64,000 bases of DNA from Candidatus Pacearchaeota archaeon. GTDB taxonomy: Archaea; Nanobdellota; Nanobdellia; Pacearchaeales; GW2011-AR1. Within the stretch, counting starts at the first letter, position 1. Every line of letters starts with the position of its first letter. The position numbers and the translations under genes are program-made. The stretch is taken from contig JAGVWX010000019.1 of NCBI GenBank assembly GCA_018304105.1, positions 1,411 through 65,410 of the forward strand. The letters run 5' to 3'. The notes beneath the pieces were generated by a model, which was given only the letters and a program-made list of their open reading frames with translations, was not told the DNA's origin and made no database searches. This document shows, in pieces, positions 8,896 to 51,933 of the stretch.

Positions 8896-8940
8896 GTAAC
8901 TTTTAGTGGATGGAGGTTTATAAAATTCTTGGAAGATTGG

Positions 8941-9055
8941 GTTTGTTGAAAATCTTTTCTATAGGGTTTAAGATTCCCACAGGGATTTCACTTTCAGTGA
9001 AAAACCCACCCTTCCTCGCCCACCCCTTTCGCCCCAATCAAAATAGTAAACCTGT
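8941..9055. repeat. dispersed C-rich box module
   Basis: gtttgttgaaaatct...gattcccaca...cccacccttcctcgcccacccctttcgccccaatcaaaatagtaaa. Homologous modules at 16560-16640, 2041-2135, 20741-20790 and 51281-51330. The listed ORF 8910..9143 across it is considered spurious. Confidence 0.7.
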
Positions 9056-9265
9056 AATTTTTGTTTTTTTAACAAAGCCGAAGGATGGGAAATCTTCTAT
9101 TTTGAAACATTATTTCATTTATGAAATAATGTTACTACTTTGATAAAATGCTACAAGTTTATATATTTGAATCTTTTTCTTTTACGAGGAGTGAAAGCAT
9201 GGCGAACGCCATTCAATCAATTGCGTTCAATAAATTTCACACTATTGAAAGGAGGTTGAAAGAAG

Positions 9266-20578: not shown

Positions 20579-20902
20579 TTCTTAATCTGTTTTAGGGCTT
20601 TGCTGAAAATCTCTTAGAATTGTTTTACTCGCAACCACGCTTGTTATTATATCTGCAATATCCTCTCGCGTAACATGCTCACTCGCAGCCACGCTCGAAA
20701 TTTGCTAATTACTTGCACTCGCGTAACATGCTCGCCTTTATCACGTCTTCAACCCCGCCCCCAATCAATATAGTGAATCAATAATTTGACTTTTTTAGCA
20801 AAGATTGTAGCTACATAACAGTAAAAGTTATTTGGAAGTACATTAACGCCCATTAACAGAAAGTTTATATAGTGCGAACTTTTGGGTTTCTGAGTAGAGA
20901 AA

Positions 20903-33129: not shown

Positions 33130-33827
33130 ACAATAAAATTACTACGGCAATCGACGGAAGACTAAAGAAATCAATCGTCTTATTGGGAGATTTGACTGGC
33201 AAGAAAATATTAGACGTTGGGTGTAAGGCAGCGTGGCTGGAAAACTATCTCAACGACCACAAGACAAAACTTAAGGAAATGCATTCGTTTGACGTAGAGA
33301 ATTATGATTTTCCTAAACTTGGAAAGAAGTTTCATTTTGCTATTGATTCAGTATTGGATATGAAGAGATATTTCGGAAAAGATTTTGATGTGGCTACATT
33401 CTTTGAAGTGATAGAACATATACCGAAGAATACAGAGTTACAAGCTTTGACGAACATAAGGAAAACTTTGAAGGTTGGTGGGAAGCTTTATTTGTCGACT
33501 CCAAACAAAAGTCTTTTTTCAAATGCTCTTGATCCAGCTTGGTGGCTTATAGGCCATAGACATTACTCCGAGAAAGAACTGAGGAAGATGTTGGAAAAAG
33601 TTGGTTTTAAGATAGTTAAGTCAGAAGTCCGAGGAGGATTTACGGAGTTGATCGCTATGGACACTTACTATTTATTCAAGAATGTGTTTAGAACGAAAAG
33701 GTTTGGTTCTAACTTGTTTAAGGATAAAAGAAATAGTGATTATTTAGATAAGAACAAGAAAGGATTTGCTACTCTGTTTATCGTTGCAGAAAAGACTAAG
33801 GAAAAGAAAAATAAAACTCTCCCCTAA
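33126..33827 (+). CDS. class I SAM-dependent methyltransferase
   Basis: ILDVGCKAAW (motif I-like), FDVATFFEVIEHIP, GGKLYLSTPN. The last four codons and the stop are contributed by repeat element R1. Confidence 0.65.
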   Translation: MNNKITTAIDGRLKKSIVLLGDLTGKKILDVGCKAAWLENYLNDHKTKLKEMHSFDVENYDFPKLGKKFHFAIDSVLDMKRYFGKDFDVATFFEVIEHIPKNTELQALTNIRKTLKVGGKLYLSTPNKSLFSNALDPAWWLIGHRHYSEKELRKMLEKVGFKIVKSEVRGGFTELIAMDTYYLFKNVFRTKRFGSNLFKDKRNSDYLDKNKKGFATLFIVAEKTKEKKNKTLP

Positions 33828-33910
33828 ACCCTTAATCTCAACAGCAGTTCTCATCTCAAATGGGACGGACGCCAATTTAGTTCTGGTTAGCTCTGGTTAG
33901 TTCTGCTGGC
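33814..33910. repeat. cassette-boundary element, copy R1
   Basis: aaactctcccctaaacccttaatctcaacagcagttctcatctcaaatgggacggacgccaatttagttctggttagctctggttagttctgctggc. Near-identical copies at 36018, 36889 and 37692. Confidence 0.9.
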
Positions 33911-34060
33911 TGTGTTGTGATTTGCTTGGTTCTGCTTGGTTCTGCTTGGTTCTGCTTGGTTCTGCTTGTCTTGCTAATTGCCTTACTTGCTTTGTCGTGA
34001 TTTGCTGACGATGTGAACGACATGTGAATGACTTGTGAGTGAGGAGAAGAACGAAGTGAA
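33881..34060. repeat. phased 10/11-bp degenerate tandem array upstream of a promoter
   Basis: ttctggttag ctctggttag ttctgctggc ... tttgcttggt (tctgcttggt x3) tctgcttgtc ... then gatgtgaacga catgtgaatga cttgtgagtga ... agtgaacga. The top strand is almost free of A over 33881-33970. Confidence 0.85.
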
Positions 34061-34076
34061 CGAAAAACATAAATAG
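34061..34076 (+). promoter_or_regulatory. BRE/TATA promoter variant (cgaaaaacataaatag)
   Basis: Identical 16-mer at 38958. 20 nt to the ATG at 34097. Confidence 0.55.
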
Positions 34077-34096
34077 CCGAGATTGCTGAATGAGAG

Positions 34097-34438
34097 ATGG
34101 AAAAACGGAAGTTTGTCTTCATGTATGATGATTTCTCAGATAGGCTGCTAATATCATGCAAAGATAAAAATGAGACCATTTCTGGGAGTGCGAGGGTTCT
34201 GAATCTTGTTCTTACATTTACAACCAATAATAAAGTTGTTGGCATAGAGCTAAAAAATGCCTCTAAGTATCTGGAATCACTAAGAATAAACCCTAAGATA
34301 TTGAATAATCTAAGCAACGCAGAGATTGTTTTTCAGCAGCAAAGAGATGGGTATCTGATTTATTTTATTCTTTATGCAGGAGAAGAAGTGGAAAGAGTCC
34401 CCTATAACGTAATATCTAGAGAACCTATCCTGAATTAA
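34097..34438 (+). CDS. DUF2283-like small protein
   Basis: 113 aa. FVFMYDDFSDRLLISCKD...VVGIELKNASKYL. Paralog of 39811..40158. Confidence 0.65.
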   Translation: MEKRKFVFMYDDFSDRLLISCKDKNETISGSARVLNLVLTFTTNNKVVGIELKNASKYLESLRINPKILNNLSNAEIVFQQQRDGYLIYFILYAGEEVERVPYNVISREPILN

Positions 34439-34770
34439 CTTTTCTTGAGTCTTTTATCCAGACTTCTTTTATACTCTACTGCATGGATGATTAAAACTCC
34501 CTTGTCTTTAGGGCAGGTGGCAATTGAGAAATAGGTGCCGTTGCTTAAATTGTAAAATAATTCATAGCCTATGTCTCCATATTTTAATGTGTCTTTTTCT
34601 ATTTCAGTCACTTTATCAAATTGGGGGAATACTTCAAGCACTTTTTTATGTTCAATTCCCTTCTCAGCAATGCTTAATCTGTAATAGCTTGTAAAAATTA
34701 ATTTCTTTCCTTTGATTTTCTCTGTGATTATCTTCTGGATTTCCTCTTTTTCTGAGATGATTTCAGTCAT
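34435..34770 (-). CDS. convergent partner of the DUF2283-like gene (DUF4258-like, putative toxin)
   Basis: 111 aa. YYRLSIAEKGIEHKKVLEV loosely resembles the HA-x-x-R-x-x-ERGI region of DUF4258. TTAA stop-stop overlap with 34097..34438. Own TATA (tttataac) ~24 nt upstream. Confidence 0.5.
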   Translation of the reverse strand: MTEIISEKEEIQKIITEKIKGKKLIFTSYYRLSIAEKGIEHKKVLEVFPQFDKVTEIEKDTLKYGDIGYELFYNLSNGTYFSIATCPKDKGVLIIHAVEYKRSLDKRLKKS

Positions 34771-34854
34771 CTCTTTTTTGACTTATTCAGAGTTATAAAT
34801 TTTCCCTATAAAATTTTTATAGCCCATAATTATTCTAGGCAAACTTAGAAAATA

Positions 34855-35045
34855 AAACTCTCACTTAAATCCATCATCTCTTCTTCCCAATAGGACTCAC
34901 CATGCTTCGAGGCTGTGAGTCTTGATTATTGCCCGCCCCTAAATCCATCATCTCCCCTATACTTCAATAGGACGCCTGTTTTATTTTGCTGACGAATTGC
35001 TGACGAATTGCTGACGATGTGAGGGGTTTGTGAATGAGAGGGGAA
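34855..35045. repeat. cassette-boundary element, diverged copy R6, with covarying hairpin and 3 x 11-bp repeats
   Basis: aaactctcacttaaatccatcatctc... Hairpin gactcac (34894-34900) / gtgagtc (34915-34921) followed by ttgattatt. ttgctgacgaa x3 at 34986-35018. Confidence 0.75.
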
Positions 35046-35062
35046 CGAAAGGGTTAAATAAT
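35046..35062 (+). promoter_or_regulatory. consensus BRE/TATA promoter (cgaaagggttaaataat)
   Basis: Identical 17-mer at 24010 and 39775. 20 nt to the ATG at 35083. Confidence 0.6.
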
Positions 35063-35082
35063 AGAACAACAATAACAACAAC

Positions 35083-35208
35083 ATGACAAAGAAGAAATTA
35101 ACGGGGAAGAATGAGAGAAAGGTTGAAGAGTTGAAGGAAATTATTCTTTCTATTAGAAACGATCCTGTGGCTATGAAACAAGTTAAAAAGTTAGCTGTTG
35201 CCTGTTAA
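35083..35208 (+). CDS. 41-aa small ORF downstream of the consensus promoter (not in the supplied ORF track)
   Basis: MTKKKLTGKNERKVEELKEIILSIRNDPVAMKQVKKLAVAC. Sits at the exact promoter-ATG spacing seen for seven other genes. Converges on, and overlaps by 18 nt, the PIN gene. Confidence 0.4.
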   Translation: MTKKKLTGKNERKVEELKEIILSIRNDPVAMKQVKKLAVAC

Positions 35209-35664
35209 GAAACTTCTTTTTAGATCCTTATATGTGTAAAAGGTTGGAGTTCTTATCTTTTTTCTTAGGTTAATTATCTTATAAGCATTTATTGCCCTTG
35301 GATGTTTTAATGTTTTTTCATCGTCAGAGAAGATTAAATCAAAGTTATACAAACTGGCGCAGGCAACAATTTTGAAGTCATTTCCGATGTTTGCCCAGTT
35401 CTTCACGCCATTGTTTGCTTTGTATTCTGAAAAATACTGCTTTGCCAGTTCTTTAATTTGTTTGTTCTCTTGAATCATTGTCCCCTTAACTAACTTATCA
35501 TATACTCTTAGGATACTTGGAGCTTTCCTTAGCTCATCTCTGATTAGCCTGAAATTATGAATTACGAATCGATTATCTGGAGCAATTTTTTCAACGAGGT
35601 TTATACCTTCTGCATCTTCAATTATTTTCCCATAGATATTTGTGTCTAATAATACATTCGCCAT
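35191..35664 (-). CDS. vapC: PIN domain protein (VapC-like toxin)
   Basis: 157 aa. N-terminal VLLDTNIY with the first PIN aspartate, and a later FDLIFSDDEK acidic cluster. Own TATA atatatttaaac ~28 nt upstream. Confidence 0.65.
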   Translation of the reverse strand: MANVLLDTNIYGKIIEDAEGINLVEKIAPDNRFVIHNFRLIRDELRKAPSILRVYDKLVKGTMIQENKQIKELAKQYFSEYKANNGVKNWANIGNDFKIVACASLYNFDLIFSDDEKTLKHPRAINAYKIINLRKKIRTPTFYTYKDLKRSFLTGNS

Positions 35665-35743
35665 CTTTGAACATAGAAACAGTCTGATTGTTTAAATATA
35701 TTTACATTGGTAAACCATTTAATCACTACAGAAGCGTCGAGAA

Positions 35744-35929
35744 CTACCTCTTTTGTCTCCATTTCATTATTTCGTCTTCGCCTTTCCACGAACCGCTTTT
35801 TTTACTGAGCGCATTTTGGGCGCTTACAGCCCTTGTCAGATTATTTTTCTTTCTCAATCGCCCGGCTACCAAAATCTCTATTTTATTTTTTAAGAGGCGC
35901 AATTCTTTGCCATTTATTTCCTGTTCCAT
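35744..35929 (-). CDS. VapB-like antitoxin candidate
   Basis: 61-aa basic protein immediately upstream of the PIN gene on the same strand. The SGSWKGEDEI motif is typical of small archaeal antitoxins. Confidence 0.5.
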   Translation of the reverse strand: MEQEINGKELRLLKNKIEILVAGRLRKKNNLTRAVSAQNALSKKSGSWKGEDEIMKWRQKR

Positions 35930-36017
35930 TGCTTGCTAACAGCATCATCGCATATAAATTTTTGGTTATCTTAGTTTTGCTTGGATATTACGATGTTGAA
36001 GTTGTTGCCCCTTAAGG

Positions 36018-36116
36018 AAACTCTCCCCTAAACCCTTAATCTCAACAGCAGTTCTCATCTCAAATGGGACGGACGCCAATTTAGTTCTGGTTAGCTCTGG
36101 TTAGTTCTGCTGGCTG
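36018..36116. repeat. cassette-boundary element, copy R2
   Basis: Near-identical to 33814-33910. Confidence 0.9.
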
Positions 36117-36167
36117 CGTTTGGCTTGTGAACGAAACAATTAAAAGCATTTGAAAGCAAACTATTGT

Positions 36168-36383
36168 ATGGCTGCTAGTGTATCTCCTTCGGAAATGAAT
36201 TATGAGTTTTATGTAGAAAGTGATATGAGCAAATACATCGGAGAATGGGTTGCGATTTTTGAGGGGAAAGTAATTGCTCACGGAAAAAATATAAAATTGG
36301 TTGCTGAAGAAGCAACAGCCTTAGCGAAAGGAAGAAAAGTCTTGTTTGCTCGCGTGCCAGATAAAGCAGCGATGATATTTTAG
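36168..36383 (+). CDS. DUF5678-like small protein
   Basis: 71 aa from the ATG at 36168 (TATA caattaaaag ~25 nt upstream). YIGEWVAIFEGKVIAHGKNIKLVAEEA...ARVP matches my recollection of DUF5678. Confidence 0.6.
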   Translation: MAASVSPSEMNYEFYVESDMSKYIGEWVAIFEGKVIAHGKNIKLVAEEATALAKGRKVLFARVPDKAAMIF

Positions 36384-36384
36384 A

Positions 36385-36813
36385 ATGACTATCACGTTTA
36401 AGTATAAGAGAATAAGACGACCTGACAATTCAGAGATTAAGACGCCTTCTATTTTAGTAACTTTTGGTGGAGCCGGAGCAAAATACGACTTTATGGTCCT
36501 TGTTGATTCTGGTGCAGATGTTTCGGTTATTCCGAAATCCATAGCGGAATTACTTGGACTGAACTTGGCGGGAGAGGAAGAAGAGGCGTCTGGAATAGGC
36601 GGTGTTGTCCCTGCGGTAGAAAGCAGTGTGCAGATAGAAATACATAAAGGGCATGAACATTATTCTTTTGTCCTTCCTGTTAAAGTTATCCTTGACGACA
36701 GCGATTTTCCAATTCTTCTGGGAAGGGAAGGATTTTTTGATAAATTTGTTGTAACATTCAATCAGTCAGAAGAGAAATTAATTTTAAAGAGAGTTCAAGA
36801 GGGCAGTTATTAA
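36385..36813 (+). CDS. retropepsin-like (clan AA) aspartic protease
   Basis: 142 aa. FMVLVDSGADVSVIP contains the D-S/T-G-A catalytic motif. ILLGREGFF is a flap/dimer-type C-terminal motif. Starts 1 nt after the DUF5678-like stop. Confidence 0.75.
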   Translation: MTITFKYKRIRRPDNSEIKTPSILVTFGGAGAKYDFMVLVDSGADVSVIPKSIAELLGLNLAGEEEEASGIGGVVPAVESSVQIEIHKGHEHYSFVLPVKVILDDSDFPILLGREGFFDKFVVTFNQSEEKLILKRVQEGSY

Positions 36814-36888
36814 GCCGATTATCTGTTGAAATTCTTTGGCAGTTTTCTCTTGAGTTTATTCTTCTTTGAGGTCTCGGAACAGAAAATG

Positions 36889-37079
36889 AAACTCTCCCCT
36901 AAACCCTTAATCTCAACAGCAGTTCTCATCTCAAATGGGACGGACGCCAATTTAGCTCTGGTTAGTTTTGCTGGTCTTGCTCGCTTTGCTTGTTAATTGC
37001 CTTACTTGCTTTGTCGTGCTTGTTTTGCTGGCTGTGTTGTGATTTGCTGACGATGTGAGGGGTTTGTGAACGGCTATGG
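36889..37079. repeat. cassette-boundary element, copy R3, plus phased array
   Basis: Core near-identical to R1, followed by ctctggttagttttgctggtcttgctcgctttgcttg...gatttgctgacgatgtgaggggtttgtgaacgg. Confidence 0.9.
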
Positions 37080-37096
37080 GAAAGAGTTTAAATAAT
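37080..37096 (+). promoter_or_regulatory. BRE/TATA promoter variant (gaaagagtttaaataat)
   Basis: 19 nt to the ATG at 37116. Confidence 0.55.
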
Positions 37097-37115
37097 ATAC
37101 ACGACTGGATAAAAC

Positions 37116-37334
37116 ATGGAGAGAATTGTAATAAACAATGAAGTCTTGGCAGGGAAGCCCATAGTGAAGGGAACAAGAATATCTGTAGAATTTATATTGG
37201 AAATGCTGTCTTCAGGAATGAGTATCGAGAGGATTTTGGAAGAATACCCTCATCTGAAGAGGGAAGATATATTGGCCGCTTTGGAATATGCAGCAAGGAT
37301 TTTTAAAAGAGAAGAATTTTACAGACTTCAATAA
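37116..37334 (+). CDS. DUF433-like antitoxin candidate
   Basis: 72 aa. LAGKPIVKGTRISVEFILEMLSSGMSIERILEEYPHLKREDILAALEYA is the characteristic DUF433 pattern. Confidence 0.75.
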   Translation: MERIVINNEVLAGKPIVKGTRISVEFILEMLSSGMSIERILEEYPHLKREDILAALEYAARIFKREEFYRLQ

Positions 37335-37335
37335 A

Positions 37336-37692
37336 ATGAAATTCCTTACTGATGAAAATGTGGCAGTTTCCGTCGTTGGATTCTTAAGGCAAGAAGGATT
37401 TGATGTGAAAGACGTAAAGGAAGAGTTGTTGCATGGCTCTCCAGATAGAGAAATTTTCGAGCTTGCAAAGAAAGAAAATAGAGTTGTTCTAACGCATGAC
37501 AAAGATTTCTTGGAGATTGTAAAGAATTACACTTCTGATTTTGAGGGGATTATTTTAATAAAGTGCAAAAAACAAAGTCCAGAAAACGTTATCGCAACTT
37601 TAAGCAAACTCATAGACTCTGAGGCAATTAAAAAAATTAAAAATAGTCTGTTTATTTTGAATGAAGAAGAATTAGTAATAATTAGAAAATGA
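37336..37692 (+). CDS. DUF5615-like (PIN-like/Mut7-C type) toxin candidate
   Basis: 118 aa from the ATG at 37336 (MKFLTDENV...LTHDKDF). Typical partner of DUF433. The listed upstream start overlaps the DUF433 gene and is rejected. Confidence 0.7.
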   Translation: MKFLTDENVAVSVVGFLRQEGFDVKDVKEELLHGSPDREIFELAKKENRVVLTHDKDFLEIVKNYTSDFEGIILIKCKKQSPENVIATLSKLIDSEAIKKIKNSLFILNEEELVIIRK

Positions 37693-37790
37693 AACTCTCC
37701 CCTAAACAAATCATCTCAACAGCAGTTCTTATCTCAAATGGGACGGACGCCAATTTAGTTCTGGTTAGTTCTGGTTAGTTCTGCTGGCTG
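37692..37790. repeat. cassette-boundary element, copy R4
   Basis: aaactctcccctaaacaaatcatctcaacagcagttcttatctcaaatgggacggacgccaatttagttctggttagttctggttagttctgctggctg. Begins at the stop codon of the preceding gene. Confidence 0.9.
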
Positions 37791-37927
37791 CGTTTGGATG
37801 GTACGTTTACAGACGCTGATTAACGCTTTGTTGAAAATCTGTCTTTTCTTGGCTGTTTGCTACTCACCAGCCACATTTAAAATCCTTGCCACCAAAATCT
37901 TTTAAACTTCAATAAACTGAACAAATT

Positions 37928-38839
37928 ATGGAAAAAGAGAAAGATGAAGTTGAAGACAGGAAAGAAGGTGACAGGGAAAATGACGAGGAAGACGGCACCC
38001 ATATTGCCATTTTTAATGGGAAACGCATAAGAAAGCGAATGGTGAATGGTGAATGGTTCTTTTCTATCGTAGACATTGTCGGAGTCTTAACTGAAAGTTC
38101 TCGCCCTAGAAAATATTGGTCTGATTTAAAATCTAAGTTAATAGACGAAGGTTCAGAGTTGTCCGCAAAAATCGGACAACTGAAATTTAAGTCTAGCGAT
38201 GAAAAAGATTATCTAACAGATTGTGCCAATACAGAAACTATTTTCAGAATAATTCAATCAATTCCTTCTAAAAAAGCAGAACCTTTCAAAAGATGGCTGG
38301 CAAGAGTTGGTTATGAAAGAATTCAAGAAATAGAGAATCCCGAGTTGGCACAAGAAAGAATGAAAAAATTGTATGAACTAAAAGGATATTCTAAAGACTG
38401 GATTGAGAAAAGATTGAGGGGAATTGCAGTTAGGCAGGAGCTTACAGATGAATGGAAAAATAGGGGGGTTAAAAAAGAAATAGAATTTGCTATTTTGACC
38501 AATGAAATAAGCAAGGCAACATTTGACAAGACTGTTGAAGAATACAGGAAATTCAAAAAGCTAAAACGCGAAAACCTGAGAGACCATATGGACGACTTGG
38601 AACTTATTTTTACTATGCTGGGGGAAGCAGCAACAACCAGAATTACTAAAACAAAAGATGTTCAAGGTTTTCCGGAAAATATAATCGCCGCAAAACAAGG
38701 CGGGGAAGTCGCAGGTAATGCACGAAGAGAATTAGAAGAAAAGACGGGAGAGAGTGTTTTATTAGAAGATAATTACTTAGACATTCCGGAAAAGCTAAAG
38801 AAAAAGAGGAAAAAGCTAATAGAAAACTTAAATGGTTGA
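37928..38839 (+). CDS. Bro-N domain protein, DNA-damage-inducible protein D (DinD)-like
   Basis: 303 aa. GEWFFSIVDIVGVLTES..PRKYWSDLKSKL, PSKKAEPFKRWLARVGYERIQE, GYSKDWIEKRL, NLRDHM. This pattern matches Bro-N/DinD-like proteins. Confidence 0.7.
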   Translation: MEKEKDEVEDRKEGDRENDEEDGTHIAIFNGKRIRKRMVNGEWFFSIVDIVGVLTESSRPRKYWSDLKSKLIDEGSELSAKIGQLKFKSSDEKDYLTDCANTETIFRIIQSIPSKKAEPFKRWLARVGYERIQEIENPELAQERMKKLYELKGYSKDWIEKRLRGIAVRQELTDEWKNRGVKKEIEFAILTNEISKATFDKTVEEYRKFKKLKRENLRDHMDDLELIFTMLGEAATTRITKTKDVQGFPENIIAAKQGGEVAGNARRELEEKTGESVLLEDNYLDIPEKLKKKRKKLIENLNG

Positions 38840-38957
38840 AACTGGCTTTAGTAATCAACAAAGCCGGATTTGCTGAAATGGGATGCATTTGCGACGCTGG
38901 AACTGCAACACTAGAACTTGCGATATAACGATGTGAATGACTTATGAACGAAGGGAA

Positions 38958-38973
38958 CGAAAAACATAAATAG
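38958..38973 (+). promoter_or_regulatory. BRE/TATA promoter variant (cgaaaaacataaatag)
   Basis: Identical to 34061-34076. 20 nt to the ATG at 38994. Preceded by gatgtgaatgacttatgaacgaaggg repeats. Confidence 0.55.
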
Positions 38974-38993
38974 TCTAAATTGCTGAGTAAAAG

Positions 38994-39251
38994 ATGGAAA
39001 AGAAAATTGAATTGGATATTGTAATTTATCCAGAGGGCAAGGGAAAAGATAAAGTTTACAGCATAAGCTCTGTTCAGGTACCTAATGTTGTAACGCAAGG
39101 AGATACAATCGAAGAGGCAATAAGCAGGTTAAGAGAAGCTTTAGAATTATACTTTGAGTCTGTTCCCTATGAAAAAGATAATTTGATAAAAATAACGGAA
39201 GATGAACAAGAGGGCTGTAATAACCCGATGATTAGCAGGATCTTTCTTTAA
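38994..39251 (+). CDS. hicB: HicB-like antitoxin
   Basis: 85 aa. VVTQGDTIEEAISRLREALELYFE. The C-terminus NPMISRIFL is paralogous to 25920..26183. Confidence 0.7.
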   Translation: MEKKIELDIVIYPEGKGKDKVYSISSVQVPNVVTQGDTIEEAISRLREALELYFESVPYEKDNLIKITEDEQEGCNNPMISRIFL

Positions 39252-39496
39252 TATCTTAGTAATTCATTTAACTCTTTTAAAATTTCTTCGTTTATTCCAG
39301 CTTCCCTGCAATTGCGGATTAAATTTTGTCTAACTATATTTGATGGTTGTTTTACATTGACTAAAATGATTGGTCGTTTCAAAGGAGGATTTCGATTGAG
39401 CTTAATATGATCGCCCCTCATGTGTTCAACATAGAATCCCTGTTTCTCCAAAATAGAAATCACTTTACTTATTATCGGTTTGAAATTATACTTCAT
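39248..39496 (-). CDS. hicA: HicA-like toxin, convergent with hicB
   Basis: 82 aa from the ATG at 39496 (TATA agtttataat ~22 nt upstream). VISILEKQGFYVEHMRGDHIKL resembles the HicA pattern. TTAA stop-stop overlap at 39248-39251. Confidence 0.65.
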   Translation of the reverse strand: MKYNFKPIISKVISILEKQGFYVEHMRGDHIKLNRNPPLKRPIILVNVKQPSNIVRQNLIRNCREAGINEEILKELNELLRY

Positions 39497-39559
39497 CTTT
39501 TTATTACTCAGAGGACGATTATAAACTTTTTCTATAATTTTTTGTAGTTGCAACCCTCG

Positions 39560-39706
39560 TATTTTTTATTCCCGCATTAAATCGTCAATCATCTCAGCAC
39601 TCGTCCTCATCTCCTAAGCTCTTCACTTCAACAGCAGTTATTATCCCAAATTGGACGCCAATTTAATTCTGGTTAGCTCTGGTTAGTTCTGCTTGGCTAT
39701 TACGGA
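39560..39706. repeat. cassette-boundary element, diverged copy R5
   Basis: ...cttcaacagcagttattatcccaaattggacgccaatttaattctggttagctctggttagttctgcttggc. Contains the perfect palindrome aaattgg-acg-ccaattt. Confidence 0.8.
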
Positions 39707-39774
39707 TAGATACAATCATCGAGGGATTTTGCTCATTTCATTTGCGTGTGAGAAAACGAGGAGAACGGCGAGGG

Positions 39775-39791
39775 CGAAAGGGTTAAATAAT
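39775..39791 (+). promoter_or_regulatory. consensus BRE/TATA promoter (cgaaagggttaaataat)
   Basis: Identical 17-mer at 24010 and 35046. 20 nt to the ATG at 39811. Confidence 0.6.
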
Positions 39792-39810
39792 CTTCATCAT
39801 CAATATAATC

Positions 39811-40158
39811 ATGAGTAGCAGGTTTTATTATGATGCTGATACGGATGATGTTATCATCTCGAATAAGCTGGACGATGAAAAAGTGAAAAAGAACTATATT
39901 TTTGATGATTTTGTTATTAGTGTTGCTGGAAGCGGGAAGATTGTTGGATTAGAGATAAGGGATGTTTCCAAGTTTCTTAAGGATTCTGGTTTAGACCTGG
40001 GCTTTTTCAAGGATATAAAAGAAGTTGAGTTAGTAATTGTTCCTAAAAGAGATTCTATCGGAATCTATATTTATCTGACAATCTTTTGCAAAGAGGGGAC
40101 TTTTGAGAGAAGGATTCCCATTACTCACCTACCTGCAGAAATTGTAGCCAGCAATTAA
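39811..40158 (+). CDS. DUF2283-like small protein
   Basis: 115 aa. FYYDADTDDVIISNK...IVGLEIRDVSKFL. Paralog of 34097..34438. Confidence 0.65.
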   Translation: MSSRFYYDADTDDVIISNKLDDEKVKKNYIFDDFVISVAGSGKIVGLEIRDVSKFLKDSGLDLGFFKDIKEVELVIVPKRDSIGIYIYLTIFCKEGTFERRIPITHLPAEIVASN

Positions 40159-40439
40159 ATCATCTTCTTCCAATATCTTTTTGCCACTGCTTTTGCAAAA
40201 TTCTTGAAGTTCTTTTCTGCGGCAAAAGCATTTATCAATTCTGGCGGCTTTTTGTCTAGATTAATGGCATAGACGAGATAAGTTCCATCTTCCTTTTCAT
40301 AATGGAAATCGTAATTGTTGTATCCAGACGGCCTTTTCCTGTAAAAAATCATCTTTATTTTTTCAAACTTTGGAAAATAATTTCTTAGTTCGTCTTCGTT
40401 CGTGTTTTTTTCTGCAACGGAAACTTCATAATACTGTTT
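40155..40439 (-). pseudogene. 5'-truncated copy of the convergent DUF2283 partner
   Basis: The reading frame extends upstream of the listed Met to a stop at 40440-40442 with no start codon. The extension (KQYYEVSVAEKNTNEDELRNYFPKFEK) aligns with residues ~28-55 of 34435..34770. The shared promoter block ttataaattttccctataaaa is still present at 40487-40507. Confidence 0.6.
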
Positions 40440-40575
40440 CTATTGTTTCCTCTGTTCTCATTTTTATCTGACGATTTTAAATATTATAAATTTTCCCTAT
40501 AAAATAATTATAGTTACTTTAGTTAAGGCCCTTGATTTTGCGAAGTTTTAAAAACCATTTTATTTCAGTAGTAAC

Positions 40576-41727
40576 ATGGCAAGGGTCAAACAACTTATTT
40601 CAGTTGGAATTATCCTGGTTTTTCTAGCATGGCTTGGATACTACGGCTATGCTCACAGAAGTGATTTTGCTGAATTGACACTCGTAAGTCCGTGGCTGAT
40701 TATTGTTTTGGTATTGGGAACGCTGGTTTCGTATCTGGCTATAAGCTACTTGAATAACGTCCTCATGCAATCATTCGGCGTGTACATGAAAATGGGCGAG
40801 AGCTTCATGCTGTCGGTTGTGACGGGCTTCTACAACTTGATAACGCCATTCCGAGGGGGAATGGCGGTACGGGCGGTGTATTTGAAAAAGAGATATAGCT
40901 TTGCGTATGTGAACTTTCTTGCTTCGCTTTCTGCGGTTTATGTTCTGACTTTCCTTGTTGCCTCGCTTCTTGGAATTGTCTCAACGGTTTGGATTTATTA
41001 TCAAACTGGAATGTTCTCTTGGATACTCTTTGTGATATTTGATGTTGTGTTTATTGGAATGGTTGGAATTATATTTGTGTCGCCGAAGTTTAAGGAATAT
41101 GATATTAACCCACCCTCCTCGCGGTCACGCTCGCAAGTTGTAGATAAAATTCACTCGCGTGACACGCTCGCCCACCCAGACGGAAAATATAGCACCAATA
41201 ATTATAACGCCAGAAATTACAACGCAAATCTTAAGAGCAGGGGCAGAAGAGATAATGGGAATGGAGATGATAATGGAAATAGCAATTGGAAAACGGGCTT
41301 GAGAAAATGGCTGAACAGATTTATTAAAGTTATTAATGGATGGCATTTGATTAAGAAGAACGGGAGAGTGATTTTAGTTACTAGCTTTGTGACGCTTGTG
41401 CAAATCTTGCTTGGAAGTTTGATGCTCTGGTTTCAGTTTAAAGTTTTTGGTGTGGATATATCGTTCATGGCTGCGATATTTTTGTCTGCGATTGGTTCGT
41501 TAAGCATTTTGATTGGACTAACTCCCGGGAATCTTGGAGTTCAGGAAGCGATTACTGTTTTCTCGGCTGCGACGATTGGAATTTCAACTACTGAATCGCT
41601 TTCTGCTGTTTTGCTTGGTCGCGCGGTTGGCTTGGTTGTGCTTTTTGTTCTTGGGCCGATATTTTCTTATGTTCTTATGAGAAGCAAAAAGAAAGGAGAT
41701 GTGAAAAATGTCAGACGAAAGAAGTAA
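40576..41727 (+). CDS. UPF0104/flippase-like (lysylphosphatidylglycerol synthase TM region-like) membrane protein carrying an in-frame repeat insertion
   Basis: 383 aa, about 8 TM helices. RGGMAVRAVYLKKRY and LTPGNLGVQEA motifs. The central loop, encoded at about 41104-41300, is made of dispersed-repeat sequence. Confidence 0.65.
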   Translation: MARVKQLISVGIILVFLAWLGYYGYAHRSDFAELTLVSPWLIIVLVLGTLVSYLAISYLNNVLMQSFGVYMKMGESFMLSVVTGFYNLITPFRGGMAVRAVYLKKRYSFAYVNFLASLSAVYVLTFLVASLLGIVSTVWIYYQTGMFSWILFVIFDVVFIGMVGIIFVSPKFKEYDINPPSSRSRSQVVDKIHSRDTLAHPDGKYSTNNYNARNYNANLKSRGRRDNGNGDDNGNSNWKTGLRKWLNRFIKVINGWHLIKKNGRVILVTSFVTLVQILLGSLMLWFQFKVFGVDISFMAAIFLSAIGSLSILIGLTPGNLGVQEAITVFSAATIGISTTESLSAVLLGRAVGLVVLFVLGPIFSYVLMRSKKKGDVKNVRRKK

Positions 41728-43495
41728 TAGCAATCTCAAACAAGGAGTGAAAGGAATTTTTAGCAGCACGTTTTGGCAGCTTGTCGTGGTTTATACTGCG
41801 CTAGTTGTGCTGATTTCATTCAGCTTGTTTTGGAAGTATACTCTACACTTTGAGCTATTTGCGGTTGTGATTGCGGTGATTGGAGCCATGGCATTGTATC
41901 ATAGTGAGGACGATGAAAAAGAGAAGCTGGACAAGCACCTGCATTACATGCTTTTGGCGCTTGGGATTTTAATTGTTTTGACTTTTAGAATGATTCCTTA
42001 TCTTAACGGAAATACAATTCCTCTTGGATATGATGCCGGAATTTACAAATACGGAATTGAGAGCTTTTCTGCCCAGGGATTTGGTGTTGATGATTGGGTT
42101 AAGAGTGCGATGTCTCCGGGATTTTTGTATCTGCTTGTGCCTCTTTTGAAAATGGGAGTTTCAAGCGAATTTATTTTGACATGGGCTTTTATTTTCTTTG
42201 GAGTTTTGCTTGGAGTTTCAATTTACTTTGCGGGGAAGGCTTACTTTGGAAACAGAACTGCTGTGATTGCGTTGCTTTTGTATGCGGTTTCAGCGATTCA
42301 GTTTAAGGTTTTCACTTATATGTATTACAAGAACGTTATAGCGCTCGCGTTTTTGTTTTTTGCACTGTATTTTCTTAAGCGGAACGAGGATTTTCGTGCT
42401 TCTGTTTTCTCTGGTGCCCACTCCGTTCATAAGCAAAGGGTTTCTGTTGTTAGTGCCCACCCTCCCGCCCTGAAACGTGATGGTAATGATAATAGTTATT
42501 CCGAGTCTGGTGGGGCAGGGAAATGGGAGAGCGAGAGCAAGAGTGGAGAAGGAACGGAAAGGCTAAAAGGATGGAACTTTTACAGATTCTTCTTCATTGT
42601 GTTTGGTGTGCTTGTTGGAATCATGCATTTGCCGACTTTCTTTATTTTTGGAGTGGCGTATGTGCTGTTTATATTTTATAATAGAAAGAATTTTGGGAAG
42701 AAGTTTGTTGACGGAGCACTTATTCTCGGATTGACGCTTCTGCTTTATGTTGGGTTTTGGAACGAGGCGATTTTGCCTTTGATTAAACCTGTGGCGGAGA
42801 GTTTTGTTGAGCCTGGAACTGCGCCCGGAACTTTTATTTCGTTTTTTGTTTATCAGTTTTCAACGCTTTACATTCTGCCATTTGCGATTCTGGGTTTTGC
42901 GCATCTGTTGTGGCAGAGGAAGTTTGACATGCTGTTTTTCTTGACGCTTGTCACAGGGATTATTGTCTATTTCCAGTTTTTCTTTTTTAACAGGTTTATT
43001 ATTCATCTGGATGTGTTCTTGATTGTTCTGGCTGCTTCGGCGTTTTCGCTGATGATTGCAAATTCTAAGAAACTGGGAATTGCGATTTTGGTTTTGATGC
43101 TTGTGTCTTCGGGTTATGTGGCGTTTCAGGATTCTGTGAATGCAAAGCCCTTGATAACAGAAGAAAGCTTGAATTTGATTAAGATGATTAATTTGAATGT
43201 TGAAGGCGACGCAAGAATTATGGTTGTTTCTTCAGAGTATTCGCCTTGGGTGCTGGCTTACTCAAACAGAGGGACGATTGCGCCTGGGCTGTTTGAGGAA
43301 AATAAATGGACTCAAGCTGACTGGGAGAAGTTTTGGAATAGCAATAGTACAGACGAGACTAAATCTTTAATGAGCGTTTATCCGAAGGGAGAACAGGTTT
43401 ATATTTTTGTCGGAACCAAAAGCTTTAACAATCCATGTTTCAGTGAATTTTTATCTAATGGAAGTAGTAAACTCCTGAGGTATAACTGTGAGTGA
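41708..43495 (+). CDS. polytopic membrane protein, possible GT-C glycosyltransferase, carrying an in-frame repeat insertion
   Basis: 595 aa with more than 10 TM helices and a C-terminal soluble domain. The loop at about 42390-42570 contains the C-rich box gcccaccctcccgccc. Function is inferred from context only. Confidence 0.55.
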   Translation: MSDERSNSNLKQGVKGIFSSTFWQLVVVYTALVVLISFSLFWKYTLHFELFAVVIAVIGAMALYHSEDDEKEKLDKHLHYMLLALGILIVLTFRMIPYLNGNTIPLGYDAGIYKYGIESFSAQGFGVDDWVKSAMSPGFLYLLVPLLKMGVSSEFILTWAFIFFGVLLGVSIYFAGKAYFGNRTAVIALLLYAVSAIQFKVFTYMYYKNVIALAFLFFALYFLKRNEDFRASVFSGAHSVHKQRVSVVSAHPPALKRDGNDNSYSESGGAGKWESESKSGEGTERLKGWNFYRFFFIVFGVLVGIMHLPTFFIFGVAYVLFIFYNRKNFGKKFVDGALILGLTLLLYVGFWNEAILPLIKPVAESFVEPGTAPGTFISFFVYQFSTLYILPFAILGFAHLLWQRKFDMLFFLTLVTGIIVYFQFFFFNRFIIHLDVFLIVLAASAFSLMIANSKKLGIAILVLMLVSSGYVAFQDSVNAKPLITEESLNLIKMINLNVEGDARIMVVSSEYSPWVLAYSNRGTIAPGLFEENKWTQADWEKFWNSNSTDETKSLMSVYPKGEQVYIFVGTKSFNNPCFSEFLSNGSSKLLRYNCE

Positions 43496-45158
43496 ACCTA
43501 AAGATTATAGAGAGAAGAACTGGGACGAGAAGTTTGAGCAGTGGAAACACAAAAGAGAGAACGAGAAATCTAAATCTGAAGATGGTGCCCACCCTCTAGC
43601 TCTAAATAGTTTTGGTAGAGAAATTAAAGAGAGCGTCGAAAGGATAGAGAAAAGTGCTGAAAAGACAGTTGAAGAAGTTGAAGAAGAAATTAAAGAAGTT
43701 GAAAAAGGAATCAAAGAGTATGAGAAAAGCAGGCCTCGGCATGTTAAAGTTTTTAGATTCCTTGCGGTTTTGATTCCTGTTTTGATTGTTCTGTATTTGA
43801 TTAGCGCGAATTTTCTTGTTGCGCAGGATTTTGAGTATACTTATAACCTTGGAGAAAGCGGGGAAAATTATCTGACGCCTGCTGAAAGGGTTTCGCAATC
43901 GGCGAGCGACAATGGAGTTTCGTACAAGAATTTGACTGGCGGTTTAGTTTATTTTGATGTGCCGATTGCGCGGGGCGCGGAGAATGTAAACGTTGAAGTT
44001 AAATTCAAAGATAACTTTCCCGAGAACGCGAAGCTTAGCCTTGGGGCGAGAGATCAGGAGGAATGGCATTATCTTTACAAGGGATTGTATAATCCTTTAA
44101 TTGATTTGGGGAGTTATGAACACAAAGGAAGGGTTTATCGATTGAATGACAATTTGCCTTTGGTTGACGAAGTTGGATTGGAAAATCTTGACGGAGTTAC
44201 TATTGCAAGCGAGGATTTTACGCCAACAATGAACAAGGTAGATGACTATGAAAATAGCGAGATAGAAATTAACGTGACTTTGAGAGGGAAGCACGTGTTT
44301 TACATTTACGCTTCGCAGGAACTGGAAGTTGAAGTAGAGAAGAGGGATATTAATTGGTATGAAGGGAGCGACGAGTTGTTTATTATGCTGTATGATTCGG
44401 ATGGGGTGCTGGTTGAGATGACACAGATTGGAGATGATGGAGTTGTTGATGCGAGCAAGGCTTTGGGAAAGAAGCAGAAAATTGTTTTGAAGGCAAGCGG
44501 ATTGAACGAGGGAGTTTACAGGCTTGAGCTGAGCGATTTTGACGGACTGGTTACGAATCTTAAGATAAATTCGAACAAGGTAGTTGCGGAGAAAGTTTTC
44601 CTGGCAGATAATGAGATTTACGGAGCTGAAACGAAGGAAAGCAAATTGTATTTTGATTACACTAAGAATGTGACTTTAAAATTAACAACTTATCATAAAG
44701 AAGGGCTGCAGAAAATTCTTTTCAATCATGGGGGAAATGTTGAAGGTTTTAGCTTTGATGTTGAAGATGCAGCTGTTTACAAGAAAGTTGCGGAGGGAAA
44801 TTATGAAGTGACATTCACAAAGAATGATATTGTTATTGAAAGCCCCGAGTATTTTGCTTTTACGCCGAGCGGATATTTCAGGCCGTTCAGGCAGAAAGTT
44901 GTTTCAGTCAGTTCGCCAGAATGGGTGATGGACAGCGCGGATTATTTGATTACAGATTATGCCGTGCCGCAGAAGGAGGGGGATTGGATTATCGCCTCGA
45001 CGGATTTTGATATTGCCAAGGAGAATTTGTTTGTGACTGAGAAGGGAATTTTAAGCTTTGTGTTTAACACGCCGCATTTGGCTGAAGCTGGAAGCAATTA
45101 TACGATTCCTGTTGATTGGATAAAAATAAAAGTGCACAAGCCGGGAGTGTTTGGATAA
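43488..45158 (+). CDS. single-pass membrane protein with large extracytoplasmic domain
   Basis: 556 aa. Charged N-terminal coil, one TM (FLAVLIPVLIVLYLISANFLV), then a beta-rich domain. 8-nt overlap with the upstream gene. Confidence 0.6.
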   Translation: MSEPKDYREKNWDEKFEQWKHKRENEKSKSEDGAHPLALNSFGREIKESVERIEKSAEKTVEEVEEEIKEVEKGIKEYEKSRPRHVKVFRFLAVLIPVLIVLYLISANFLVAQDFEYTYNLGESGENYLTPAERVSQSASDNGVSYKNLTGGLVYFDVPIARGAENVNVEVKFKDNFPENAKLSLGARDQEEWHYLYKGLYNPLIDLGSYEHKGRVYRLNDNLPLVDEVGLENLDGVTIASEDFTPTMNKVDDYENSEIEINVTLRGKHVFYIYASQELEVEVEKRDINWYEGSDELFIMLYDSDGVLVEMTQIGDDGVVDASKALGKKQKIVLKASGLNEGVYRLELSDFDGLVTNLKINSNKVVAEKVFLADNEIYGAETKESKLYFDYTKNVTLKLTTYHKEGLQKILFNHGGNVEGFSFDVEDAAVYKKVAEGNYEVTFTKNDIVIESPEYFAFTPSGYFRPFRQKVVSVSSPEWVMDSADYLITDYAVPQKEGDWIIASTDFDIAKENLFVTEKGILSFVFNTPHLAEAGSNYTIPVDWIKIKVHKPGVFG

Positions 45159-51153: not shown

Positions 51154-51387
51154 CTTTAGTCTTAGAAAAGTGGATTTAAATTAGTTTTGATTGTTCATAT
51201 ATGTTGAAAGTCTTTTTATGAATTGTTTGCTACTCGCGATCACACTCGCGAATTAATTGATATACTGCTCGTGCAATGCGCTCGCCCACCCTCCCTGCTC
51301 CCGACCTGGCTCGTAAATAATTTTTAGAATACTCTCGCTAAGTCGCTCGCCCAGACAGTTTCGACTTGAAATTAATAAATCATTGTC

Positions 51388-51464
51388 GCGCGCCGCAATT
51401 GGACGCCCGTTAGTGAAGCTGGCGTCTTGATTATTTGGCTCATTTCGTTCGCCTTGCGGCGCGC
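51388..51464. repeat. 77-nt structured dispersed element (11-bp outer stem, inner hairpin)
   Basis: gcgcgccgcaa (51388-51398) and ttgcggcgcgc (51454-51464) are perfect complements. Inner hairpin gacgcc (51402-51407) / ggcgtc (51421-51426), then ttgattatttggctca. Confidence 0.8.
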
Positions 51465-51933
51465 TAAATTTAAGTCGAATTATTTATCGCAAACAATTCT
51501 AATTTTTTGTAGGTTTAGGATTCCCTCCCCGATTTGACTTTTCAATGGAGTTTGAAAGTTCGCAAAATATTTAAAGGCAAATAGCCGAGGATAATTGTTT
51601 TAAACGAACTCGGTATACTGAGATATACTACTAAAGAAGGGCGTGTTAACACTGTTCCCATTGAGAAGTTACAACAAACCGAAAAGTTTAAATACCTTTT
51701 ATGACTCTATTTACTATCACCTCTTTTTGCCCGGGAGAGGACGTTTAGTTCATCTATTTTAGCTTGAATTAAACCTCCTCTTCAAGGGTTTGAATTTTGT
51801 TATAAATCTCCAACAAATCATATTTCTTAAGAAGAAAATGATGGCATCCGGTCTAGAATCCGGCACTACATCTTTTTTATTTTTATTCTTTTATAATTAA
51901 TTTATCTAGAAAATACTCTTTTTGCCCGGAAGA

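Follow-up and report, generated by a model that had tools for sequence, protein, structure and literature searches.

Introduction

In-frame colonization of genes by repeats is known from textbooks as a peculiarity of Rickettsia and Wolbachia, with reports for a few other bacteria. Intragenic enterobacterial repetitive intergenic consensus (ERIC) elements were reportedly described by Delihas in 2007. Here we analyzed a stretch of 64,000 nucleotides from the genome of a groundwater Pacearchaeota archaeon (DPANN), an organism with a small genome. In this lineage, C-rich repeat DNA of a modular intergenic family very probably lies, in frame, within the coding sequences of at least six ordinary genes, where it adds disordered loops in a manner resembling that of Rickettsia palindromic elements (RPEs). 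The stretch (C17:1411-65410) is referred to below as the window, and three adjacent genes in it, designated genes 1, 2 and 3, are the main subjects of this work.

RPEs (Ogata et al. 2000, 2002, as summarized in PMC10969869 and PMC3733652) and the related Wolbachia palindromic elements are repeats that occur in frame in genes. A total of 44 genic RPE copies is reported for R. conorii. Prokaryotic MITEs (miniature transposable elements with inverted repeats), including archaeal ones of Sulfolobus and Haloquadratum, were reviewed in PMC10969869. BOX elements of Streptococcus pneumoniae are outlined as boxA-boxB(n)-boxC (Croucher et al. 2011; PMC10969869, PMC3184786), and in-frame fusions of BOX, ERIC and repetitive extragenic palindromic (REP) elements were described in bacteria (PMC10969869, PMC3184786, PMC3733652). 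In the literature searched, MITE reviews included, we found no archaeal case of in-frame genic repeat copies. A previous reading of the window from its letters and open reading frames (ORFs), hereafter the sequence-only reading, had proposed that palindromic repeat DNA was inserted in frame into loops of genes 1 and 2 by a process analogous to that of RPEs.

Results

A repeat core in a flippase-like gene

The genome to which the window belongs (G000) has a size of 1.06 Mb, 23 contigs and 39% G+C; G003, G006, G009, G014 and G031 denote genomes of relatives. All genes, inserts and repeat copies of the window described here are on the + strand. Gene 1 (40576..41727) encodes a flippase-like membrane protein of the LPG_synthase_TM family (383 amino acids), which matched Pfam PF03706 in one stretch over residues 7-360 (E=4.5e-31). 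We found a lineage-specific in-frame insert in this gene at 41098..41304, with 69 codons (translation YDINPPSSRSRSQ...NWKTGLR) versus 3 (RKN) in orthologs, an addition of 66 codons. It contained a repeat core at 41108..41180, composed of a left C-box (41109-41117), boxA (41118-41133), a spacer of 19-20 nucleotides (nt), boxB (41153-41170) and a right C-box (41171-41177). C-boxes were defined as CCCACCC or CCCGCCC, and the sequence of this core was CCCACCCTC-CTCGCGGTCACGCTCGCA-19 nt-CTCGCGTGACACGCTCG-CCCACCCAGA.

The sequence-only reading had noted that 41104-41300 resembles intergenic modules, and for the core this resemblance was strong. Its local alignment with an intergenic copy at C6:28404 extended over 73 nt and had a score of 74 versus a shuffle maximum of 24 (z=26), with all four modules in identical order and spacing, and comparison with the copy at 20593-20803 of the window gave z=15. 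Also, 7 other copies matched 41108-41177 in self-BLAST at E<=1e-3, and boxA of gene 1 matched its pattern exactly. Beyond the core, a weaker likeness to the right arm of intergenic elements reached ~41205; the insert as a whole has the length of a full element, and its 3' part was right-arm-like by eye.

The insert was absent in 13 of 16 aligned orthologs, which had SPKFKE-RKN-KWLNRF at this place (SPKFKExxN and then KWLNRF). For example, the empty site in L003 was KERKN/KWLNRF, the slash marking the insertion point. Two relatives carried inserts at the same site, and the one in L001 was homologous in DNA (gcccgccctgacggaaaatatgtagccaa versus gcccacccagacggaaaatatagcaccaa) and was without boxA and boxB. 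In the AlphaFold model, residues ~179-234 were coil with a predicted local distance difference test (pLDDT) score <50, located between helices 149-168 and 236-261. Because the flanking residues are basic, the insert probably forms a cytoplasmic loop. The gene 1 protein with its insert was recorded on 28 contigs from several sources (NCBI, JGI, Logan, ENA) and is therefore not an assembly artefact; the same inserts were also found in JGI metagenomes. Among assemblies, 2 of the 3 amino-acid polymorphisms of gene 1 were inside the insert, and this placement was counted in support of relaxed constraint on it.

Two further observations concern gene 1 and its surroundings. Its close orthologs P0007 (L001) and P0002 (L003) had low-complexity C-terminal extensions of 40-60 residues (e.g. 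...STSAAHSPNKIVELPLLKKKKEGDKIVELPL), which could represent more repeat-derived sequence added to the gene at its 3' end. Besides, genes of toxin-antitoxin type for HepT, a nucleotidyltransferase and ParE (window 33814-40520) flanked the flippase-like gene in relatives too (L001, L002).

Eroded copies in genes 2 and 3

Gene 2 (41708..43495) encodes a membrane glycosyltransferase of the GT39/PMT_2-like type (595 amino acids; Pfam PF13231, E=3.8e-06), and its orthologs were annotated at source as ‘glycosyltransferase family 39’. The lineage-specific loop in this gene (42380..42568; ~63 codons, RNEDFRASVFSGAHSVHKQRVSVVSAHPPALKRDGNDNSY...TERLK, approximately residues 225-287) was found in the nearest orthologs only, where it was variable in both length and sequence, and was missing in remoter orthologs (FLKKEK/RYLF), including those of three same-genus genomes. 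The repeat segment that the sequence-only reading had placed at 42390-42570 was confirmed for 42447..42473 (TTGTTAGTGCCCACCCTCCCGCCCTGA), the rest having no repeat match. This remnant consisted of 6 nt of the inner edge of an inverted end plus a double C-box and was identical at 25 of 27 positions to an intergenic ‘solo’ element, i.e. one without boxA-boxB, at C8:28772 (z=13.8). The same reading had pointed to 9005-9055 as the counterpart of this loop; that likeness was weak (z=2.4), and the true counterpart was the ‘solo’ C-box element at C8:28833-28847. The genome had six exact occurrences of the 15-mer CCCACCCTCCCGCCC, one at window 42456-42470 in gene 2 and five at intergenic sites (C6:44610, C8:28833, C13:37616, C19:27288 and C21:2121). 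A degenerate C-box (GGTGCCCACTCC) was present at 42413-42424, and the sequence 5' of the C-box in the remnant was also found in the Bud32 copy described below.

In G006, a sister species of the same genus, the ortholog of gene 2 had a complete core at the loop site (ggtGCCCGCCCTACTCGCGACCACGCTCGC...CTCTCGCGTGGTGCGCTCGCCCACCC, translation GARPTRDHARNDIGNYSRVVRSPTHNR), and C-rich remnants were present at this site in G003, G009 and G031. Since other species have the insert, G006 with the full core, the gene 2 insert is old and has been eroded in G000. AlphaFold placed residues 238-287 of gene 2, with pLDDT <50, between helices 207-236 and 291-306. For genes 1 and 2 together, the sequence-only reading was thus upheld on several points: both reading frames are open in the ORF listing, both segments lie in coil loops between helices, alignment with orthologs showed the loops to be additions, and their nucleotide alignments to intergenic copies were far beyond chance when compared with shuffles.

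Gene 3 (43488..45158) encodes a membrane-anchored protein of 556 amino acids that was assigned to no family, its Pfam match being sub-threshold only. A decayed copy, which the sequence-only reading had not noted, was found in it at 43584..43615 (GGTGCCCACCCTCTAGCTCTAAATAGTTTTGG, translation DGAHPLALNSFG), with a match to CCCACCCTC and with TGCCCACCC contexts. At the corresponding position, following the WDEKFEQWK motif, the G006 ortholog contained a full core, and none was found in the G003 and G031 orthologs. Because it is common to other species, the gene 3 insert is old, and partly decayed in G000. Of these three genes, gene 1 had a complete core in G000, with C-box remnants only in genes 2 and 3, and in G006 the core was complete at the latter two sites.

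Host genes outside the window

Copies were also found in housekeeping genes on other contigs. FtsY (C19:24454-25791) contained an in-frame core (SAHPARDHAPQHAEKYSSPNRSPALK), and comparison of its orthologs showed orthologs without the insert. Bud32 (C19:29585-30508; L041/L045 and L004 are the FtsY/Bud32 loci) had two sites, one after the glycine-rich strand and the other between HGDLTTSNMIW and YFIDFG. Both sites are located between conserved blocks, each insert was absent from 13-15 of 18 relatives, and Bud32 of G014 had a full core at the first site. Between the FtsY and Bud32 copies, in genes 5 kb apart, identity was 86% over 73 nt (AHPARDHA...SPNRSPALK). The C-box-plus-boxA junction was seen in G000 (FtsY, Bud32) and G006 (gene 2, gene 3) only.

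MnmA (C11:4319-5485) differed in the module that it carried, of which an in-frame copy in antisense orientation was found at residues 323-356 of its C-terminal barrel. This module is a hairpin repeat with the core aattggacgcc, which is also found at window 51366-51442, and the alignment of most same-genus MnmA orthologs ended at residue 323. The genic sites numbered about 7-9 in 6 genes (gene 1, gene 2, gene 3, FtsY, Bud32 and MnmA).

Preservation of the reading frame

The length of every insert was divisible by three, and downstream of it the conserved half of each protein was still in frame. Across the six inserted segments (300 codons), the host frame had 0 stops, and the two alternative frames had 10 and 27. 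The gene 1 insert had 0 versus 2 and 12, and the gene 2 loop had 0 versus 2 and 7. These segments are presumably translated as hydrophilic disordered loops. In all genic core copies the C-rich strand was the sense strand. Genic copies were without the inverted ends of intergenic elements, of whose inner edge no more than 6 nt was kept.

Intergenic family: organization and distribution

We carried out a census of the family in the whole G000 genome by self-BLAST and graph clustering, and a regular expression for the core was run as well. Self-BLAST joined 192 regions, almost all of them intergenic, into one family, and the core expression had 39 matches. Modules followed the order left arm (GGCTTTGTTGAAAA...GAATTGTTTGC), optional hairpin, C-box, boxA (CTCGCRRYCACGCKCG), ~19 nt, boxB (CTCGCGTAACATGCTCGCC or variants), further C-boxes and right arm. 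The boxA-boxB unit of 52-54 nt was present in 0, 1, 2 or 3 copies between the C-box and arm modules, so that the family has the ordered modules and variable-number middle unit of BOX-type elements. Full copies of one subtype were 77-281 bp long and had inverted ends (GAATTGTTTGC...GCAAACAATTC), which ranged from 11 bp perfect to ~30 bp imperfect. Terminal inverted repeats of the kind that defines MITEs are thus present in intergenic full copies, GAATTGTTTGC being paired with GCAAACAATTC.

Three intergenic copies illustrate this organization in the window (all +). The copy at 20593..20803 had two boxA-boxB units and was supported by the sequence as read, by matches to the regular expression and by a self-BLAST depth of 20. 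The copy at 8936..9077 was composed of the hairpin module, C-boxes and the right arm (sequence as read; self-BLAST depth 9). The copy at 51202..51500 had inverted ends (GAATTGTTTGC at 51220 and GCAAACAATTC near 51500, their pairing spanning C17:52630-52910) and contained boxA, boxB, a C-box and a nested hairpin repeat. CCCACCCTC occurred 5 times in the window, always on the + strand, when 0.22 occurrences were expected.

The family had a narrow distribution. The boxA pattern CTCGCRRYCACGCKCG was found 22 times in G000, 11 times in G009, 5 times in G006 and 4 times in G014, and 0 times in the other 17 of 21 genomes of the genus, the reversed control pattern giving 0 throughout. A scan for the type-2 core subtype in 185,579 GTDB species representatives and JGI metagenomes matched only the G000 organism and one relative. 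Rfam had no family for the repeats, two tRNAs being its sole matches in the window, and nhmmer with single short module queries gave too few matches for iteration. No transposase was found beside any inverted-end pair, and the borders of genic inserts were not fixable to the base. No target-site duplication was definable.

Intergenic copies had no fixed orientation relative to neighboring genes. Genome-wide, they were common between tandem and divergent genes and rare between convergent ones (1-2 of ~23) and are therefore mostly in promoter-containing spacers. In a six-frame test, each strand of the intergenic boxA-boxB units had no more than 1-2 of its 3 frames open. The family is therefore not generally adapted to coding, and the genic copies are survivors of selection.

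Discussion

Origin of the genic copies

Our observations show homology between the loop DNA and the repeat, addition of the loops to older genes with the frame preserved, and a loop position in the structural models. Considering the insert-free orthologs, the matches to the repeat, the full cores in G006 and the four additional hosts, an RPE-like process very probably operates in this archaeal lineage. In the history that we propose, the GC-rich core (C-box, boxA, boxB, C-box) would have repeatedly joined protein-coding genes from MITE-like intergenic elements. Copies that broke a gene would have been lost, and survivors would be those that keep the frame, contain no stop codon and sit where extra residues are tolerated. 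In genes 1 and 2 such places are loops, presumably cytoplasmic, that connect membrane helices; in gene 3 and FtsY they are N-terminal linkers, and in Bud32 and MnmA turns between strands. Once translated as loops, the copies would decay, and the inserts would be mostly neutral, tolerated passengers. Entry could have occurred by insertion of a whole element followed by loss of its AT-rich, stop-rich arms, or a patch of core could have been copied in through recombination or gene conversion between copies.

Several findings weigh against this history or narrow it. We infer translation of the inserts from frame preservation alone. In gene 2, the recognizable repeat accounts for only 27 of ~189 bases of the loop. 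The genic copies are without inverted ends, so that ordinary transposition of whole elements in the manner of MITEs would be no more than a possibility for them, and no transposase partner was found. When the insert columns were excluded from the tree, the insert-bearing orthologs of gene 1 were not sisters; the approximately unbiased (AU) test did not reject a single origin of these orthologs (p=0.33 and 0.17). Precise excision of the gene 1 insert, at which the free tree hinted, was dropped on the strength of this test. In addition, C-boxes outlast the rest of decaying copies, which could mean functional retention and not passive junk.

A related question is how cores are completed or reduced after entry. 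The double C-box might serve as a landing pad at which an 18-codon boxA-boxB cassette is gained or lost by recombination between copies, although we regard this as doubtful. The full and solo states at the gene 2, gene 3, FtsY and Bud32 sites were reciprocal among G000, G006 and G014, which fits gain and loss of a cassette; ordinary decay by deletion would fit too. A clean indel of 54 nt at every site was also considered, and it failed the base-by-base comparison for genes 2 and 3. If the cassette idea is true, sister species would differ by whole peptide segments in essential proteins (e.g. FtsY and Bud32).

Alternative explanations

The persistence of C-boxes raises another possibility, namely that they are a functional DNA or RNA signal, putatively a G-quadruplex or a protein-binding site, kept by selection both in genes and between them. 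The loops would then exist where the signal is needed and not as tolerated selfish DNA, and an insertional origin would be compatible with this. On the strand complementary to CCCACCCTCCCGCCC the sequence is GGGCGGGAGGGTGGG, which constitutes a G-quadruplex motif of four tracts and 1-nt loops, and four-C-tract motifs occurred 30 times in the genome versus 0-6 times in Markov-shuffled genomes, 14 of them being 15-mers of the form (C3N1)3C3. Similarly, C-boxes persisted without the boxA-boxB middle in decayed copies (genes 2 and 3 in G000, FtsY in G006), and all genic copies had one strand orientation. However, the family is absent from 17 of 21 genomes of the genus and most orthologs manage without it, the host genes and their insertion sites are mutually unrelated, and the intergenic copies have no fixed orientation to neighboring genes. 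On this balance, we consider a selected signal to be an unlikely explanation for the loops.

It is much less probable that the inserts never reach the mature protein, being cut out either as RNA, in the manner of an intron cleaved by the archaeal splicing endonuclease, or as an intein-like peptide, so that the proteins are unchanged. No bulge-helix-bulge was seen across the insert borders; both borders are C-rich and cannot pair into such a structure, and no such helix was present in the folds. Genic cores folded no better than shuffles (z -1.0, -1.4 and +0.7). A spliced element would not need to keep the frame, whereas the inserts had 0 stops in frame versus 37 out of frame. Also, the inserts have 26-73 residues, which is far below the size of inteins, and by inspection they had no Cys/Ser...His-Asn borders. 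That the likeness is compositional or convergent, reflecting C-rich fast-evolving linkers, or that the intergenic repeats were copied from gene fragments, is hardly credible: low-complexity stretches in both loops (NGNGDDNGNSN and SESGGAGKWESESKSGEG) do match no repeat copy, but alignment scores are far above those of shuffles for both genes, four modules are conserved in order and spacing, exact 15- and 16-mers are shared, and intergenic copies that have inverted ends of their own number in the dozens, as against single genic sites that are mostly lacking in orthologs.

Comparison with described repeat systems

The preferred interpretation, RPE-like insertion of repeat DNA in frame, can now be set beside the known systems, of which the palindromic elements of Rickettsia and Wolbachia come closest and the in-frame fusions of BOX, ERIC and REP repeats in bacteria are also near. 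As with RPEs, the repeat is found both in intergenic regions and in frame within unrelated housekeeping genes that have insert-free orthologs, the peptides lie in loops and are seemingly tolerated, and the host genome is small and reduced. Unlike RPEs, the host is archaeal (DPANN) and not an alpha-proteobacterium, the genic core is non-palindromic with no significant fold, what the genes contain is restricted to an internal module of a larger mosaic element, and this inserted DNA is rich in C and has direct C-box repeats at either end. Genic copies are also fewer, at about 7-9 sites versus the 44 copies reported for R. conorii. Of the analogy drawn by the sequence-only reading, in-frame insertion of repeat DNA therefore held, and the palindromic nature of the elements did not, core fragments only being present in genes; we dropped the label ‘palindromic’ because RNA folding of genic cores was not significant. 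Since only 4 of 21 genomes in a single archaeal genus have the family, sequence homology to RPE-1 to RPE-10 is very unlikely.

The intergenic full copies are like MITEs in being non-coding and multi-copy with inverted ends, and in their length of 77-281 bp. They are unlike MITEs in that no partner transposase or target-site duplication was identified in our analysis, the interior is a variable mosaic, and genic copies are without inverted ends. The family also resembles BOX elements in its modular build, the number of middle units varying from 0 to 3, and in the in-frame fusion of some copies to genomic ORFs. Unlike BOX and ERIC elements, it belongs to another domain of life, has unrelated sequences and carries C-rich boxes instead of hairpin-forming boxes.

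Significance

A DPANN case with a non-palindromic modular element means that gene colonization by repeats is not tied to bacterial hairpin repeats or to their transposases. Lineage-specific low-complexity loops of the ‘AHP...’ type, which would otherwise be mistaken for fast-evolving linkers, are explained by this process, and the G-quadruplex-type 15-mer provides a testable feature of the repeat. The inserts can serve as presence/absence markers for dating splits of these uncultured archaea. Finally, remodeling by repeat DNA is allowed, even where archaeal genomes are smallest, in essential proteins such as the signal recognition particle (SRP) receptor FtsY, the KEOPS kinase Bud32, the tRNA thiolase MnmA and the enzymes of envelope glycosylation.

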